A stretch of 64,000 bases of DNA, taken from positions 1 through 64,000 of IMG/VR virus record IMGVR_UViG_3300044835_000075. One strand, written 5' to 3'. The notes below the pieces were generated by a model that worked only from the letters and a program-made list of their open reading frames with translations, did no database searches and was not told the origin of the DNA. A program made the position numbers and the translations under genes. The DNA comes from a virus. Below are positions 780-7,892 of the stretch, one piece after another (positions within the stretch are counted from its first letter, which is position 1; every line of letters starts with the position of its first letter).

Positions 780-809
780 AGTATAGCCGCGCTAGCGGCG
801 GTTAATCAA
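780..809 (-). promoter_or_regulatory. Promoter/operator repeat, class A
   Basis: TTGATT AACCG-N9-CGGC TATACT. Confidence 0.7.
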
Positions 810-2209
810 TCGTCCCAGAGGGAGAACTCCGCGCGCGGCCCCGGCACTGCCGGAGTCGCCACATCGTCGTCCTCGAAGTTCTCCGCGTCGTCGCCGTCCG
901 GCCCGTCGTCCGCACGCCGCAACTCCCCCGCGCCGACCATCGTCCAGTCCACGTCATCGACCAACGCCTGCTCGTAGGCGTCGTCCTCGTCGTTCGGGTC
1001 GTCACTGCCGTCGTCGTCGGCACCCGAGTCGTCGTCGGAGCCCAGGAACGTGCTCAGCGAGTCGTCGTCGATCGAGTCGATGTCGGAGTCCGGATCCGCC
1101 ATGAGCATCGCGGCCTTGAACTCCTCGGCGGAGATCGTCAGCGCCTTGTGCGCGTTCTTCCCCGGCCACACGCCGGTGGCGAGCTTGTGGATGTTCGCGG
1201 TCAGGCCGTCGAGGATGTGCGGGTCCTGGACGAACTTGGCGAGATGCCTGCGCAGCCGCTTGAAGTCCCCCGGCGTGCCCGGCCGCCACTTCGCCGCACC
1301 CTTGCCGTGCGCCCAGTACTCGCGCAGCTTCGCGGCGTTCGGGCTCGGGCTCATGATCTTCTGCTCGATGGCCTTTTTGATCTCGAACTCAGTCAGCCCG
1401 GCGTGCTTCTTCTCCGGCGCCGCCGCGTTCCAGTCCTTCGGGAGCATGTTCGTCGCCTTGAGCCGCTTCGCGGCCGCGTTGATCACCGTCTTGCGCGCGG
1501 CCTTGTCGGCGGCCGGGACCTTCGCGAACGCCTTGATGGCAGCCGCCAGATCGCCAATGCTCTTGATCGTGTCGCCGTCGGTCGCGCCCTGCGGAGGACC
1601 GCCCTTGGCGCCCTTCTTCGGGCCCTTCTTCGCGAAGTGCGCGGCCAGACCGGCGGGCATCTTGCCCTTCGTCTCACCGTCGTCCTCGCCGTCACCGTCC
1701 CCGGAGTCGTCGACATCACCGTCGGCCGCGCCGAACGGGAAGTCGTACACCTGCTCGGGGAACTCCAGGCGCAGCCGGTCGAATGTCACCGGCCCCACCT
1801 TGGCGAGCTTGTCTGCCGACAGGCCGAACCCGGCCGTCATGTGCGGGAAGTACGGCTCATGCTGCGGTTCGTCACAGCACTGGTCGAAATGCTGCTGCAA
1901 CGCCGTGAGCAGGCCGGTGCCGCCGACCAGGTACACCGCGCACGGCTTGCGGTCGGCGAAACCGTCCGGGTTGAACGTCGCCGTGGCGAACAGCCGGGCG
2001 TCTATCGGCCCGAAATGACTCGCCACGTTCGCGACCTCGGCCGCCAGCAGGTTCCGCTGCGATGCCGTCATACCGCTGACGTCGTCGCCCAGGAACGCCA
2101 GGGTGACATGCAGCTCGGTGGGATCGTCGCCGCCGTCGACCGCGTACGTCTGTGCATCCTCCGCGCGCGGGATGAGTGCGATCATGCCGCCGTTCTGCTC
2201 GTCTGCCAT
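806..2209 (-). CDS. 2H phosphoesterase (2'-5' RNA ligase/Acb1-like) N-terminal domain fused to helical domains and an acidic tail
   Basis: Two HxT motifs (ELHVTLAFLG, YFPHMTAG); C-terminal LREYWAHGKGAAKWRPGTPGDF segment; lies inside the head module. Confidence 0.75.
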   Translation of the reverse strand: MADEQNGGMIALIPRAEDAQTYAVDGGDDPTELHVTLAFLGDDVSGMTASQRNLLAAEVANVASHFGPIDARLFATATFNPDGFADRKPCAVYLVGGTGLLTALQQHFDQCCDEPQHEPYFPHMTAGFGLSADKLAKVGPVTFDRLRLEFPEQVYDFPFGAADGDVDDSGDGDGEDDGETKGKMPAGLAAHFAKKGPKKGAKGGPPQGATDGDTIKSIGDLAAAIKAFAKVPAADKAARKTVINAAAKRLKATNMLPKDWNAAAPEKKHAGLTEFEIKKAIEQKIMSPSPNAAKLREYWAHGKGAAKWRPGTPGDFKRLRRHLAKFVQDPHILDGLTANIHKLATGVWPGKNAHKALTISAEEFKAAMLMADPDSDIDSIDDDSLSTFLGSDDDSGADDDGSDDPNDEDDAYEQALVDDVDWTMVGAGELRRADDGPDGDDAENFEDDDVATPAVPGPRAEFSLWDD

Positions 2210-2380
2210 GCCGCACATCGTTGCAGGAGAGAGCCCCTGCGGGCGGCTGACACGCGCAGCCGGTTTGACCTGGCGCGAATACGCACGCTAAGGTCAGGGC
2301 CTCTTCTCGATCGTGTGTCGAAGAAGCGGAACCGGCCAAACCCTCGCACCCCGTGCGGGGGTTTCGTCGTTGTGGGGCAC

Positions 2381-4659
2381 CTATGCCACCACCTGTGCAC
2401 TCACCGTGCCCGCGCCGACGCCGAGCAGCTCGAACGTCGTCCCGGCCGCCAGCACGATCGCGCCCCCGGCCACTCCGATCGCCACCCCCGCCGGAATCAG
2501 CACCGTAAGCACCACGGCCGCGTCCGACGGAATCGCCAGCCCCAGCACCGGCGTCCCCGGCATCGAGATCGACTGACCGGGCAGCGCCGCCAGCGGTGCG
2601 GTCAACGCGCGGTAGGCGATGATCGGCTGCTTGAGCGTCACCAGCGACGCCACCGGCGGCAGTCCATACCCATCCGGGGTAGGGGTAAGGGTCTCGCCCA
2701 TCGAGCGAGCCGCCGACTTCGCCACGGCCGCCGTGAGCATGTCGAGCGTCCTGCCGGGAGCGCCGGAGTCGGTGCGCGCGGACTCGGCCATCTCGTTCAT
2801 CCTGCGGGCCGCGTCGCCCGGCTTGCGGAACAGCAGTCCGCACCGGCAGTTTTTTGTAGGTATACTGTTCGCTAAGAACATCCCCGCCGTCGTCTGGAGC
2901 GTGTACACGTGGCCCCTAAACGCCTTCCTCTCGATCTTGACCACGCGGTCAAGCTCTACAACTCCGGCCAGCCTCTCCGTGAGGTCGCCTCTCATTTCGG
3001 CATGAGCCAAACCACCCTTTTCCTGAGATTTCGTGAAGCCGAAGTCCCTATGCGCATCGGATCGCAGAAGATCCTGCCCCTTCGCGTCTCGATTGATGCC
3101 GAGGAAGTCGCCACTCGTTACCGGAACGGCGAGAGCGAGAAGGCTCTCAGCGAAGCGCTCGGGGTCGACCGGTCCACCATCCGAACCCGCCTTGAGCGCA
3201 GCGGCATACAGCCACGCGGGCGCTCGGAATCCTTGCTTTTGCGTTGGTCCCGGCTCGATGTCGCCGAACGTGAGGCACTCGTTGTCGCTGCCCACATCGC
3301 CGGTCGCGGACGAATCGCCAGCACCGAAGAACTGACCCGCCGGGCTCAGTCCCGCGCCTCGCTCGACTGCTTCACCTCGCCCTGGGAAGTCGTTCTTGCT
3401 GACCTGCTCGCCGACCGAGGCGTGACGGCCGATCCGCAACGCGCTGTCCACCACTACAATGTCGACCTGGCCTGCTGGCCGGTCGCCGTGGAAATTCACC
3501 GCGACCCCGGGCATCCCCTGAACCGGCGCGCGCGTCGCCAGCGCATCGTGGACCTGCTCGATCGTGGCTGGCTTCCCCTCTACGTCTGGCTCAACCCGCG
3601 CACCAGCGCCGTGACCAACGCGTGTGCCGATCACGTAGTCGAACTCATTCAGCTCGCCCAACGTGACCCAGCCGCGTTCGGTGAGTACCGGGTGATTCGG
3701 GGTACCGGTGAGGCTGCGTCCCTGCGCAGTGCGAAGGGTCACGACCTGTCCGACATACGGCGCACGAAATGAACCTTCGACGTCGGGCCCTGCAACCTCC
3801 GTCTCCGGCACAAAGCAGTTCGCGACCTCGCCCCACGACGCGGGTAGATCCGCCGGATCGCCGGGGTGCTTGAGCTGGAACTTGCCGACCGTGAACGTCT
3901 CCCCCACCGGCCGCACCTGCCCGTCGGCGACCACGTGGGTGTGCCGGACGCGGTCGTCCCGCTTTGAGAGCCATTGAGTGTGGGTCACGCCGAGCCGCAC
4001 GGCGGTGCGCAGGGCGGCGTCGTTGACCAGCGCGTTGCCGAGTGTCCGCCCGGCCATCAGAAGCCAATTGCCCCCCCTGTCGTGCGCGGCCTTGATGTTG
4101 TCGAGCACCTCGTCGAGGTCTTCGGCGGTCTTGTCGGAGTCGAGCACGGCCGCCCGGACGACCTTGGCGTGCGCGTCGGCGACCCCGAGGATCCGGCTGA
4201 TGACGTCCTCGACGGCTGCGGTGAGGTCTCCCATGTCGAACGCGGTGAGGTCGGAGCCGCCACCCAGGTTGGACGATGTCTCTTTCGCCGCCTCGGTGGC
4301 GATCCGGAGCACGACGGGGCGGATCTCCTCGCGCAACTCCGCTTCGAGTTTGTCCGGCACCACGTAGGCCGGGTCCAGCGCTTTGAGTTCGCGGGTGAGT
4401 ACGGCCGTGCCGCCGCCCTTGGTCTCGACCTGGTCCCACCACCGGGTGTGCTTGCGCGCCTTGGGGCCCTTGACGCGGGCGGTGACGACGGCCAGCGAGC
4501 GCTGCAAGTAGCTGTCGAGTACGGCGGTGAGGGCGTCCTCGGCGCGCCGGGCGCGGGCGTCTACCGCGTTGACGAGCCGCTGGCGGTCGGGCCCGGGGGC
4601 GGGGCTGGGCGAGGCCTCGGCAATCGTGAGTTGCGGCGTGGCCAGCGGCGGGAAGTCAT
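2381..4659 (-). CDS. MuF/SPP1 gp7-like minor head protein containing an intein; ATG 4659 is one base out of frame with the body (open frame 2381-4507+)
   Basis: QWLSKRDDRVRHTH..DGQ..F.VG..L.HPGDP..EVAN|CRC motif after intein removal; directly downstream of portal. Confidence 0.85.
2849..3817 (-). mobile_element. Intein (323 aa) inserted in the MuF N|CRC motif
   Basis: Block A CFVPETEV, block B LTGTPNHPVLTERGW, block F VVKIERKAFRGHVYTLQT, block G FLANSIPTKN followed by Cys+1. Confidence 0.9.
2909..3772 (+). CDS. HTH-HTH + Vsr/DUF559-like PD-(D/E)xK endonuclease, nested antisense within the intein (putative homing endonuclease)
   Basis: Two HTH repeats (LYNSGQPLREVASHFGMSQTTL; RYRNGESEKALSEALGVDRSTIRTRL), then SPWE..L..Q..YNVDLA..VAVEIH..H..L.DRGW..L.VW; GGAG 9 nt before GTG. 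Confidence 0.8.
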   Translation: MAPKRLPLDLDHAVKLYNSGQPLREVASHFGMSQTTLFLRFREAEVPMRIGSQKILPLRVSIDAEEVATRYRNGESEKALSEALGVDRSTIRTRLERSGIQPRGRSESLLLRWSRLDVAEREALVVAAHIAGRGRIASTEELTRRAQSRASLDCFTSPWEVVLADLLADRGVTADPQRAVHHYNVDLACWPVAVEIHRDPGHPLNRRARRQRIVDLLDRGWLPLYVWLNPRTSAVTNACADHVVELIQLAQRDPAAFGEYRVIRGTGEAASLRSAKGHDLSDIRRTK

Positions 4660-6239
4660 CGCCAGATCGAGGCGTCGGCGCTGCCGACTTCAGCTCGCGC
4701 GCGGGACTGCCTATCCTCCAGCTCGATCATCTCTTCGAGGCTGCGCTGCTCCAGCGCGCCGGGCCGGGAGTCGACCAAGCGCAGCGAGCGGGCGTTGTTG
4801 TCGTTCTCTGCGGCCTGGGCGCCCATCATGCTGCCCTGCTGGGCACCGGCCTCGGCCTCGGCGGCCGGGTCCGGGGGCGGCGGGGTGCCGAGCATTTGCA
4901 GCTTGTTGACTTCGGCGAGGTCGTCGGCCGCACCGGCTGGGACTTTGCCACCGGGGAGCATGACGACGCGGGACCACGGCTGATCGAAGGGCGGTTTGCC
5001 TGCGATGACGCGGTATTCGTCGAGGGTGCAGAGTCCGGCGGCGAAGTCGGCGGCGGCTTGGGTGATGTCACTGCGCTTGTGTCGGTTGAGGACCCATACG
5101 TCGGAGACGTCGTGCCGGAGGAACAGGGTGTCGTCGTAGTCTCCGGTGAGGATGTCCATTTGGTCGTCGAGCATTTCGAGCAGCGGGAGCATCGTCTGCG
5201 CCCAGAAGATCTCGTACTCGGCGTCGGCGTTGTCGAACGTCCGGCCGGACGCGTCGCCCAGGACGGACTCGGGCACGCCGAAGACCATGGCGATCTCGGT
5301 CCGCATCCGGTCCATCGTGTCGGCCCACTGGGTGTCCCGTGGGTTGCCGGACGTGTCGACATACTCCATCGCGTCGGCCTGGATGGCGGTGGTGCGGCCG
5401 ATACCGGCGGGGCCGCCGTTCATGCGGGTTTCGAGGATGTCGATCACGTCGGGCGAGACGTTGCCCTTGACGGCGAGGATGCCGCCAGGACGGCCGTCCT
5501 GATCCATGAAGCGGCGGTTGTACATCCGGGCGGCGCGGTCGAGATCGGCCGACATTCCAGCGGCCTGGGCGGGGCTCATGCCCCGGAACATCAACGTCGG
5601 GTGCGGCGAGCGGACCCACAGGACCGAGTTCGGCTGGTCGGCGAAGTCGGCCTTGGGGTCGTAGCGCGGGAGGTAGTTGTACGGGCCGGACTGGTCGTTC
5701 GTAGTGATGCGGAACGAGCCGAGCGGGTCGACGTACTTCTGCCCGGTCCTGCTCAGGACAGTGGTGGGGATGATCTCCACCATGTCCGGGTCGATCAAGT
5801 TCATCATCGCCACGCGGCCGCTGCGGCTGCGCACGATCTCGATGTAGACCCCGCGTGAGGACAGGAGCCATTGTGCGATGAGGCGGTACTGGAAGACCTT
5901 CGCGCGCTCCCAGCGGTTGGCCTGGATGTTCATCAGGCGCAGCAGGCCGGTGGGGTCGGCTTCGGGCAGGATCGGTTCGCCGTCCGGGGAGCCGTCGCGG
6001 ATGACCACGGTGCGGGCGATGACGGCGCAGGCGATGACGTGGACGGCCCGGTAGATCCACGGGTTGACCTCGAAGCCCTCTTTGACCGCGCGGTCGGTGT
6101 TCCAGGCCTGGTTGTAGGGCTGACCTGGGACGACGTACTGCCGGAAGAACGACCGGGCACGGCCGGACAGGCCCTTGGTCTCGATCGCCTTGCCGGTGAT
6201 CGCGCGTCGTAGAGCCGGGGCGAGCGTGCGCCGAGCCAT
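4656..6239 (-). CDS. Phage portal protein (HK97-like)
   Basis: NPWIYRAVHVIA, RGMSPAQAA, FMDQDGRPGGIL, IAMVFGVPESVLG, TLDEYR motifs. Confidence 0.9.
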   Translation of the reverse strand: MARRTLAPALRRAITGKAIETKGLSGRARSFFRQYVVPGQPYNQAWNTDRAVKEGFEVNPWIYRAVHVIACAVIARTVVIRDGSPDGEPILPEADPTGLLRLMNIQANRWERAKVFQYRLIAQWLLSSRGVYIEIVRSRSGRVAMMNLIDPDMVEIIPTTVLSRTGQKYVDPLGSFRITTNDQSGPYNYLPRYDPKADFADQPNSVLWVRSPHPTLMFRGMSPAQAAGMSADLDRAARMYNRRFMDQDGRPGGILAVKGNVSPDVIDILETRMNGGPAGIGRTTAIQADAMEYVDTSGNPRDTQWADTMDRMRTEIAMVFGVPESVLGDASGRTFDNADAEYEIFWAQTMLPLLEMLDDQMDILTGDYDDTLFLRHDVSDVWVLNRHKRSDITQAAADFAAGLCTLDEYRVIAGKPPFDQPWSRVVMLPGGKVPAGAADDLAEVNKLQMLGTPPPPDPAAEAEAGAQQGSMMGAQAAENDNNARSLRLVDSRPGALEQRSLEEMIELEDRQSRARAEVGSADASIWR

Positions 6240-6399
6240 CCTCACCCCTCACGTCTGGACGTTTTGCCTGATCGTGAGGGTATCCGGCGTCGGGGTGCGT
6301 TCTTGCGCAGACGCGCGGCGGAGAGCTGGACGAACTCGACCCGACGGCGTTCGTCAGCTGGGTTTCGCGACGGCATTGGCCGCCGGGTCGAGGGGCCTG

Positions 6400-6628: not shown

Positions 6629-6720
6629 CCCCTGATCTTGACGGGTTTGGTATCCGACTGGACTCCGGTACCCCTACCCCGCTAGGGTATGCGTAAATAC
6701 GCACAGCTGAGGACCGGTGA

Positions 6721-6999
6721 ATGAACGACACAGCGCTCGGCACGGAGATCACGGCCACGGCCGCGCGGATCCGCGCCCTGCTCGACCTCGACGCCAGCGG
6801 CACACCCGGGGATCTCCTCCCCGAGCTGGCCATCCTGGACGAGGCCGAACGGAACCTGCGTGTCGTCCGCGACTCAGTCCTTGTCCACGTCCGCAGACGC
6901 GGAAGCTCGTGGAACACGATCGAAGCCAGCACCGATGTACCCGCCACCACCTGGCGCGGCCGCTACGTACGACACACAGAGGAGACCAGCCGACCATGA
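6721..6999 (+). CDS. Small HTH-like protein heading the transfer operon
   Basis: RRRGSSWNTIEASTDVPATTWRGRY resembles actinobacterial HTH; ATGA-coupled to next gene. Confidence 0.55.
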   Translation: MNDTALGTEITATAARIRALLDLDASGTPGDLLPELAILDEAERNLRVVRDSVLVHVRRRGSSWNTIEASTDVPATTWRGRYVRHTEETSRP

Positions 7000-7892
7000 T
7001 CGCCCAGACGTCGCGCTCCCGACGTTGGAAGGCCCCCAAGACACCGAAGCCGCCCAAGACCCCGCGCGTCCGGCGCAAGCCGATCGCCGCGCTCAAGGGC
7101 AAGCTGACCCCCAAGCGGGCGACGCCGGTGCCGGTGGACCTCCGCAAGCGGGAACTGGTCGCGGTCACCGCGCTGGCCGCGCTGGCAGTGCTCTCCGTCG
7201 CCGCCATCGGGTTCGTAATTAGCTACTCCCACATGCACGATTGGGCCTTGGCGAACCACGAACCGGACTGGCGCGCGAAGCTCTTCCCCCTGTCCGTCGA
7301 TGGCGCGATCCTCGCCGCCACCCTCGTGCTCTACGCCGACTCACGCGCCGGTCGCAAGGCCGACAAGCTGGCGTACTTCATCACCGCGCTGGGCATCGCC
7401 TGGTCGGTCGGGGCGAACATCGGGCACACGTGGGTGAGCGCCGGTGCGGCCATGCTGATCGCGGGCTGGCCGCCGGTGGCGATGGCGCTCTCGGTCGAGC
7501 AGCTGCTCAAGTTCCTGCGCCGGTGGCGCGGGCAGGCCGACGCCGAGGTGCGCAAGGCCGCGAAGCAGCGGACCGACCGGCCCGCCGCCGAGCCGGACAC
7601 CGTCGAGGTCGCGCCGAAGCCGGTTCCCGCGCCGCGCCCGAAGCCGTCGGCACCGAAGCAGGCTGAGGTGATGGCGCCGCACGTGGTGCCGATGGAGGTG
7701 CCGAGCTGGGTGCCCACGATCCTCAAGGCTGGCGACGCGTGCCAGGCCTATCTCACCCAGGTCAATCCGGACGCCGAGGCGCCGGAAGTCGACCGCGAGG
7801 TCGGCAAGTACATCCGCATGTCGGATGGGTACGCCCGCCGCCAGGTGCGGGTATTCAACGAGGCCCGGCAGGCCGCCGGGCAGGGAGGGTAG
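6996..7892 (+). CDS. DUF2637/SpdA-like membrane protein of actinomycete conjugative elements
   Basis: 4 TM segments; ISYSHM, LFPLSVDGAIL, SVGANIGH, IAGWPPVAMALSVEQL motifs. Confidence 0.75.
   Translation: MIAQTSRSRRWKAPKTPKPPKTPRVRRKPIAALKGKLTPKRATPVPVDLRKRELVAVTALAALAVLSVAAIGFVISYSHMHDWALANHEPDWRAKLFPLSVDGAILAATLVLYADSRAGRKADKLAYFITALGIAWSVGANIGHTWVSAGAAMLIAGWPPVAMALSVEQLLKFLRRWRGQADAEVRKAAKQRTDRPAAEPDTVEVAPKPVPAPRPKPSAPKQAEVMAPHVVPMEVPSWVPTILKAGDACQAYLTQVNPDAEAPEVDREVGKYIRMSDGYARRQVRVFNEARQAAGQGG

Follow-up and report, generated by a model that had tools for sequence, protein, structure and literature searches.

The 64,000-nucleotide stretch of viral DNA analysed in this work (hereafter the window; positions 1-64,000 of the IMG/VR record IMGVR_UViG_3300044835_000075, in whose window positions the coordinates below are given) contains on its minus strand a gene for a MuF-like head protein that is interrupted by an intein. 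The plus strand of the same intein DNA carries a second open reading frame (ORF), which is predicted to encode a Vsr-like nuclease with two helix-turn-helix (HTH) modules. Our analyses make it very probable that this element is to be classed with the mobile inteins that carry an "anti-sense VSR-like homing endonuclease", and that it is located in the MuF-like gene of a 107-kb actinophage-like virus. The main features of the locus are the following (aa, amino acids; nt, nucleotides; a slash in a protein motif marks a splice junction; pLDDT, predicted local distance difference test; dN/dS, ratio of nonsynonymous to synonymous substitution rates).

2381..4507, minus strand: MuF-like minor capsid/head-morphogenesis gene, host of the intein; 708 codons and a stop, from the ORF list, its translation and PHROGs matches to head protein and head morphogenesis families
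2849..3817, minus strand: class-1-type intein of 323 aa (969 nt) at the MuF N/CRC site
3623..3817, minus strand: N-terminal splicing region, intein aa 1-65, with blocks A, B and N3; better conserved in the MuF frame, and overlapping the 3' tail of the plus-strand ORF
2984..3622, minus strand: intein interior, approximately aa 66-278, a probable read-through linker in the MuF frame, from pLDDT (low), dN/dS and BLOSUM62
2849..2965, minus strand: C-terminal splicing region, intein aa 285-323, with blocks F and G; high pLDDT, and better conserved in the minus frame
2909..3772, plus strand: HTH-HTH-Vsr-like nuclease ORF, putative homing endonuclease; GTG start, 287 codons and a stop, codon-for-codon antiparallel to the intein frame
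2936..3199, plus strand: two HTH DNA-binding modules, aa 10-43 and 64-97, from Pfam HTH families
3371..3715, plus strand: Vsr-like (PD-(D/E)xK-type) nuclease domain, aa ~155-269, with the family-invariant residues N184, D186, E195, R212 and W221
2861..2911, plus strand: candidate expression signals of the plus-strand ORF within intein codons, found by reading, viz. TATACT (2861-2866), GGAG (2896-2899) and GTG (2909-2911)

The boundaries of the intein are confirmed by the existence of natural empty alleles that lack precisely these 323 residues. The junctions in the MuF precursor are ...WGEVAN/CFVPETEV... and ...SIPTKN/CRCGL..., and the intein-less junction sequence is ...GTCGCGAAC/TGCCGGTGC... 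(also given as ...GAGGTCGCGAAC/TGCCGGTGC...). Six shorter intein-less relatives (P0229-P0234; 372-378 aa in length, except for P0232 with 340 aa) show 57-67% identity to the window protein over the N-extein region that was searched, and in the five of them that were aligned (alignment A3; 48-67% identity overall) exactly the intein residues are absent. At the insertion point these alleles read ...WGE[VI][AG], followed by N or G and then by CRCGL. A preliminary description of this DNA, prepared without database searches, had placed a 323-aa intein that splits the MuF N/CRC motif at exactly these coordinates. It had also reported a 287-aa plus-strand ORF in exact codon-to-codon antiparallel register with the intein, which is confirmed by translation, and its further proposals that this ORF encodes two HTH units and a Vsr-like nuclease, and that it overlaps both splicing sub-domains, likewise agree with the results presented here.

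The assignment of the intein to the class 1 type is based upon the presence of Cys1 (N/CFVPE), which is invariant in alignment A2, of the block B motif TxxH in the form T39-P-N-H42 (T39, N41, H42 and P43 are invariant in 36 sequences), and of a C-terminal Asn (N323, also invariant) that is followed by a Cys at position +1 (...TKN/CRC). In a structure model built with 36 homologues, the two ends of the intein adopt a HINT fold with pLDDT values of 88-97 for aa 1-60, a block mean of 76 for aa 61-70, and 91-98 for aa 285-323. From these features we infer that a minimal HINT domain formed by intein aa ~1-65 and 285-323 would excise the intein and join ...EVAN to CRCGL...

One alternative to be considered is that the intein is dead, MuF being a pseudogene or left unspliced, so that only the nuclease gene matters. 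Three observations favour such a view: the penultimate residue of block G is Lys322 (2852-2854, minus strand) and not the usual His, the only Pfam match of the minus-strand protein (Intein_splicing) scores below the cut-off, and an unselected insert of 200 aa could hinder folding. However, none of Cys1, the TxxH of block B, the terminal Asn and the +1 Cys is missing, the splicing blocks of related inteins are under purifying selection in the MuF frame (dN/dS of 0.16), stops are kept out of the intein frame in low-GC (guanine plus cytosine) relatives, and the MuF gene is located within an intact head-gene module. The penultimate residue, which is His in most other loci, is moreover Arg or Lys throughout the subclade to which the window belongs (Fosterous, Vivi2 and the locus L103), the Arg being found in Gordonia Vividuovirus phages and in L103. 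We regard a dead intein as very unlikely. The codons around Lys322 are ATA, ACA, AAA and AGT, an AT-richness that is uncommon in DNA of 67% GC.

The reading of the plus-strand ORF as a separate endonuclease gene of the intein, Vsr-like and with two HTH domains, is supported by domain matches and by its predicted structure. In Pfam searches, the protein matches HTH_23 (5e-9), HTH_38 and HTH_7, all of them above the curated cut-offs. An AlphaFold2 model constructed with 37 homologues (mean pLDDT 87.4; 204 residues at or above 90) consists of two HTH units, a helical linker, and an alpha/beta domain of the Vsr type, for which Foldseek reports probabilities of 0.99 for I-Bth0305I (3r3p), 0.96 for Vsr (1vsr) and 0.90 for NGO0050 (3hrl); at E<=0.001, Foldseek returned no match for either the nuclease or the intein model. 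The closest solved structural relative, I-Bth0305I, is a proven homing endonuclease. With the sequence profile of the nuclease alignment (A1), matches were obtained to 3hrl (E 0.005) and 3r3p (E 0.016); all 37 nuclease sequences contain D186 and E195, and the ...YNxD...VAVE... motif can be aligned with that of DUF559 in 3hrl. PF18741 or PF04480 is found in some homologues of the protein, for which the name very-short-patch-repair endonuclease is used by some sources. The family comprises 2608 cluster representatives at E<=1e-3, of which 159 remain at E<=1e-30.

The two frames thus differ in what they are predicted to fold into, the plus frame giving a nuclease fold and the intein frame folding mainly at its HINT ends. 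The preliminary description had characterized the intein interior as nonsense protein, and this holds for aa 128-284, which have pLDDT values below 50 and are predicted to be disordered; it may not hold for aa 81-127 (3437-3577, minus strand), where a helix and strands are modelled with pLDDT values of ~80-87. These residues mirror the most conserved motif of the nuclease (D...VAVE opposite FHGD), and both frames are highly conserved there; they could represent either real extra strands of the intein or a covariation artefact that originates from the other frame. The interior in the MuF frame is probably an unselected read-through linker of ~200 aa that is disordered.

It may be asked whether the plus-strand ORF is no more than a chance antisense ORF of GC-rich coding DNA, from which no protein is made. 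For the window by itself such an ORF is to be expected, as the in-register antisense frame is open with P = 0.21 given the codon usage and the GC content of 67%, and GC content by codon position within the window alone also does not separate the two frames, both outer positions having 0.6-0.85 GC in the interior. Because the open antisense frame is not significant in the window alone, the case rests on its relatives. We have examined substitutions in five independent close pairs of related loci (81-97% nucleotide identity), and the totals by codon position, obtained after dropping a duplicated pair, are as follows.

Differences at MuF codon positions 1/2/3, with the binomial P for position 1 versus position 3
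Exteins: 30/21/140, P 3e-18
Splicing blocks: 28/12/67, P 8e-5
Interior: 203/43/93, P 1.5e-10

Position 1 of a MuF codon is position 3 of a nuclease codon, and the excess of position-1 differences in the interior consequently marks selection on the nuclease frame. The same hand-over is seen in dN/dS values calculated by the Nei-Gojobori method, with the duplicated pair included.

Exteins: dN/dS 0.09 in the MuF frame, 1.90 in the antisense frame
Splicing blocks: dN/dS 0.16 in the MuF frame, 0.99 in the antisense frame
Interior: dN/dS 0.96 in the MuF frame, 0.20 in the antisense frame

As had been expected earlier, the interior is selected only in the plus frame in these relatives, and within a trio of Gordonia phages the hand-over of selection is located at intein residues ~60 and ~260. 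Among 15 highly divergent loci, blocks A, B, N3, F and G have the higher mean BLOSUM62 score per column in the MuF frame, and every interior window has it in the nuclease frame, whichever frame guides the alignment; in the minus frame of the interior the mean is mostly ~0, and the FHGD/VAVE columns are well conserved in both frames. In tblastn comparisons with phage Aaphi23, the plus-strand protein scores 94 bits and the whole intein 66 bits. As judged by these substitution patterns, the locus is one of two overlapping genes, each of which is under purifying selection in its own zone.

A further line of evidence is provided by phages of 39-50% GC, in which the chance of an open antisense frame is between 1e-6 and 5e-9 per locus. 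The stop codons of one frame correspond only to TTA, CTA and TCA codons in the other, and hence synonymous codon choice alone can keep both frames open. The numbers of these three codons that would be expected in the nuclease frame were derived from the extein codon usage of the same phage.

Phage Aaphi23 (L001): 0 observed, 12.7 expected, P 4e-7
Klebsiella phage KpTDp1 (L009): 0 observed, 10.6 expected, P 2e-6
Vibrio phage PvVp04 (L019): 0 observed, 15.4 expected, P 5e-9
Vibrio phage 1.197.A (L021): 0 observed, 15.5 expected, P 5e-9

A natural control is available in the free-standing nuclease gene of Acinetobacter phage BUCT629, which contains 13 such codons where 12 are expected and whose antisense frame is closed. 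On these codon counts, codon avoidance is actively keeping both frames open in the low-GC phages. The overlap had earlier been thought to be tolerated because high-GC genes avoid TTA, CTA and TCA. This is not its general cause, as phages of 39-50% GC share the layout and the codons are actively excluded (0 versus 10-15 expected). The openness of the plus frame in such phages, the Pfam HTH matches above cut-offs, the confident Vsr-like nuclease fold, the interior dN/dS of 0.20 against 0.96, the annotation of a free-standing homologue and the size of the family all argue against a chance ORF, which we consider extremely improbable.

A tblastn search with the plus-strand protein identified 126 phage records, viz. 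Salmonella (63), Gordonia (15), Pseudomonas (15), Klebsiella (8), and Vibrio, Acinetobacter, Haemophilus/Aggregatibacter and others. Twenty-one of these records and one IMG/VR locus (L004), together designated L001-L022, were inspected. The nuclease match is antisense to an annotated MuF or head-protein gene in 20 of the 21 phage records, the exception being BUCT629 (L020). All 21 embedded loci have both frames open and share the insertion site ...N/C...N/C[RK][CS], with a variant C-terminal junction, ...HN/CAK, in L013. An additional 108 loci from IMG/VR and bacterial genomes, with GC contents of 39-74% and from phyla that include Chloroflexota, Actinomycetota, Pseudomonadota, Armatimonadota and Acidobacteriota, have both frames open without exception; these were retrieved with the peptide pattern YRVIRGxG, and since this pattern is the mirror of intein block B, the sample is biased towards embedded copies. 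Overall, 129 of the 130 related loci that were checked have both frames open. The embedded ORF is not annotated at full length in any of the 20 GenBank phage records (including Aaphi23 and the Jersey-like Salmonella phages); all that has been called in Salmonella phage vB_StyS-sam is a short fragment (2730-3131 of L011), as a hypothetical protein.

The host genes are mostly of the MuF type (PF04233), and Phage_min_cap2 genes (PF06152; L113 and L073) also serve as hosts. In the IMG/VR locus 3300050821_009689 (L092:101-4753, minus strand), the same type of intein with an antisense nuclease is found in a 1551-aa DNA_pol_A/UDG/3'-5' exonuclease protein, in which Pfam shows two Intein_splicing stretches, and a second intein is possible. 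The DNA polymerase P0072 may be compared with this case. In Actinobacteria bacterium isolate 28 (L123:2162-3586, minus strand), the host is a putative phage metallopeptidase whose N-extein contains PhageMetallopep (PF18894). The inteins therefore occur in at least 4 host gene families, as these annotations indicate, and within each host gene the nuclease gene keeps to a single insertion site.

The free-standing homologue in BUCT629 (MZ712044.1; L020:2411-4116) is annotated as QZI85355.1. Its gene is convergent with, and overlaps by 7 nt at the 3' end, a gene for an intein-less MuF-like protein of 258 aa (...PMCKCRAKL...), so that it adjoins the MuF gene near the same CKC site. A search of the antisense strand of the BUCT629 nuclease gene for an intein relic found stops only, and the block-B-like motif is absent at the expected place. 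This homologue is a possible model for a free-standing ancestor or for an escaped copy of the nuclease.

Candidate expression signals of the plus-strand ORF lie within codons of the intein. The first 14 residues of the plus-strand ORF are the antisense of intein block F, and the His codon of this block, read in antisense, provides its start codon (CAC giving GTG in the window, CAT giving ATG in most relatives). GGAG or GGAGG sequences located 7-9 nt upstream of the start are the antisense of the ...NLQ... codons of block F, the GGAG of the window lying 9 nt ahead of its GTG, and a motif resembling a Shine-Dalgarno sequence together with a start codon is present in 50 of 61 non-redundant loci. 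The -10-like TATACT of the window is the antisense of block G codons; in relatives, the hexamer at this place is antisense to codons for Ile and Val in block G. In 27 of the 61 loci, a TATAAT, TACAAT or TAAAAT hexamer lies at a distance of 6 or 9 nt from the junction, compared to a background of 1.6% per 30-nt window, and in high-GC loci the final 15 bases of the intein have 37% GC versus 62-70% in their surroundings. From these patterns, which in the window are consensus matches, the nuclease gene appears to bring its own -10, Shine-Dalgarno and start signals. The only terminator-like hairpin (3838-3820, minus strand) is at chance level.

The 3' part of the plus-strand ORF, comprising its last 45-60 codons, passes through blocks N3, B and A, and the conserved YRVIRGxGE mirrors ...TGTPNHPVL... 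of the intein. Altogether the ORF overlaps ~60 codons of the N-terminal and ~20 codons of the C-terminal splicing region. Conservation in the region of the ORF tail is dominated by the MuF frame; nuclease aa 237-264, which lie in this tail, are nevertheless confidently placed in the model, and the free-standing BUCT629 protein has a collinear tail of similar length that aligns with weak scores (40-68).

A mechanism that would account for these features can be outlined as follows. The MuF precursor would be made from the minus strand, and its HINT ends would splice despite the linker of ~200 unselected aa, which is the codon-for-codon antisense of the independent plus-strand gene at 2909-3772. 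The nuclease would be expressed from its own signals, viz. a -10 element in the antisense of block G and a Shine-Dalgarno sequence and start in the antisense of block F, and it would cut intein-less MuF alleles at or near N/CRC in co-infecting phages. Recombinational repair would then copy the intein and the nuclease gene into the cut allele (homing). This model fits the patchy distribution of the intein, the presence of a free-standing homologue beside an empty site, and the proven homing activity of the best match among solved structures, none of which proves homing. The patchy distribution is evident from a comparison with the window protein, to which intein-less alleles show 67% identity and the intein-bearing P0044 and P0045 only 48-49%. 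Two proposals of the preliminary description, that the nuclease gene invaded a mini-intein in reverse and that homing is uncoupled from late MuF expression, are plausible on the present evidence.

The plus-strand gene could instead be real without being, or while no longer being, the homing enzyme of the intein; it might encode a DNA-binding regulator or a nuclease that acts in competition or exclusion between phages, and the intein would then be inherited vertically. The majority of VSR-like groups are reported to show apparent vertical inheritance, with apparent horizontal transfer in two clusters only (bioRxiv 10.1101/2025.01.02.630785); the closest intein relatives of the window are, furthermore, only 54-55% identical, so no recent transfer is visible. 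However, the tie of the nuclease to one insertion site per host gene across at least 4 families, the direct adjacency of its free-standing homologue to an intein-less MuF gene, the homing activity proven for its closest solved relative, and the lack of correspondence between intein presence and extein similarity are all at variance with a non-homing role, and we view such a role as unlikely.

Several of our results weigh against a mobile intein with an independently expressed nuclease. A scan of positions 2500-4100 for strict sigma-70 consensus promoters found none, and the -10 candidate of the window itself is only TATACT. No Pfam nuclease family, including DUF559 and Vsr, matches the plus-strand protein of the window. 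To these are to be added the Lys322 of block G, the P value for the window alone, and the bias of the 108-locus sample, which have been described above. The evidence as a whole still makes a mobile intein with an antisense homing endonuclease the strongly preferred interpretation. It is about an even question whether the overlap should further be regarded as an old, co-adapted two-strand module, in which the signals of each strand lie in the codons of the other (the -10 in block G, the Shine-Dalgarno sequence and start in block F, the nuclease tail in blocks B and N3, and the catalytic D...VAVE core perhaps opposite folded intein strands at aa 81-127), and which has spread across phages and prophages in genomes that are assigned to Actinomycetota, Pseudomonadota, Chloroflexota, Armatimonadota and others, with host genes of at least four kinds (encoding MuF, minor capsid protein 2, a fusion of family A DNA polymerase and UDG, and a phage metallopeptidase).

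The parent IMG/VR virus record has 107,374 bases, is estimated to be 96% complete, has ~67% GC, and contains a single copy of the intein/nuclease element. The homologues of the window's MuF gene bear the Pfam domain PF04233 (Phage_Mu_F), and the gene sits in an intact head-gene module, between the following neighbours identified by annotation.

806-2218, minus strand: head-maturation-protease-like gene
4656-6245, minus strand: portal gene

The closest named relatives of the window are Gordonia phages and actinobacterial prophages, and a search of phage records at the DNA level found only short stretches of ~72% identity, in Gordonia phages; the virus, an uncultured record, is probably actinophage-like. 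A 391-aa ORF at 6717-7892 (plus strand), divergent from the head module, matches the excisionase-annotated phrog_733 (1.4e-15).

The window thus provides a clean, intact example of two proteins encoded by the opposite strands of the same ~860 bases, with selection handed over between the strands within one mobile element. The location of the nuclease's own signals inside the splicing blocks, if it is true, may free homing from late head-gene expression. The element offers a natural model for antisense overlapping genes, and for understanding how free-standing endonuclease genes become intein-borne.

The preliminary description knew of no contiguous intein with this architecture. The architecture has, in fact, been described already by Gosselin, Arsenault and Gogarten (bioRxiv 10.1101/2025.01.02.630785, version 2025-10-20), who report anti-sense VSR-like homing endonucleases in full inteins of the minor capsid proteins of actinophages and of a few other host genes, and the window is hence a further example of a known layout. 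It shares with these inteins a contiguous structure, a (here putative) homing endonuclease encoded as a separate antisense ORF and a MuF-type host gene, and it differs from them in originating from an uncultured IMG/VR virus and not from a PhagesDB phage. The main text of that preprint makes no mention of promoters, ribosome-binding sites, codon usage or register, or the avoidance of stops, nor of a spread to Proteobacteria, Chloroflexota or other groups beyond actinophages. Our results suggest that the layout is far more widespread than has been reported and that it is maintained by measurable codon avoidance.

Other known systems share some of these characteristics. Anti-sense LAGLIDADG inteins, viz. 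those of Synechocystis DnaX and a Chloroflexus SpoVR-like protein (Gorbalenya, 1998; Gogarten et al., 2002; as cited in bioRxiv 10.1101/2025.01.02.630785), also have an endonuclease ORF opposite the intein strand and, as far as that citation describes them, differ in the nuclease family and the host genes. The "fractured genes" (Dassa et al., 2009, PMC2677866) have a split intein, and between its halves lies a free-standing gene for a Vsr-like homing endonuclease. The resemblance to the window lies in the same broad nuclease family, an occurrence mostly in phages, and an endonuclease that is a separate gene, whereas there the host gene is broken and the intein split; in the window, it is antisense read-through of the nuclease gene that leaves the intein contiguous. 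An antisense or opposite-strand position of the endonuclease gene goes unmentioned both in Dassa et al. (2009) and in Taylor et al. (2011, PMC3239194). The latter work concerns I-Bth0305I (PDB 3r3p), an EDxHD homing endonuclease of a phage group I intron, to which the window nuclease has only 12% identity; I-Bth0305I is encoded by an intron and its N-terminal DNA-binding region is different. Lastly, in the canonical large inteins such as PI-SceI and PI-PfuI, which carry an in-frame LAGLIDADG or HNH endonuclease, the HINT domain is interrupted at the same topological point as in the window. In the window, however, the putative mobility enzyme lies outside the intein polypeptide, and the in-frame insert appears to be an unselected linker.

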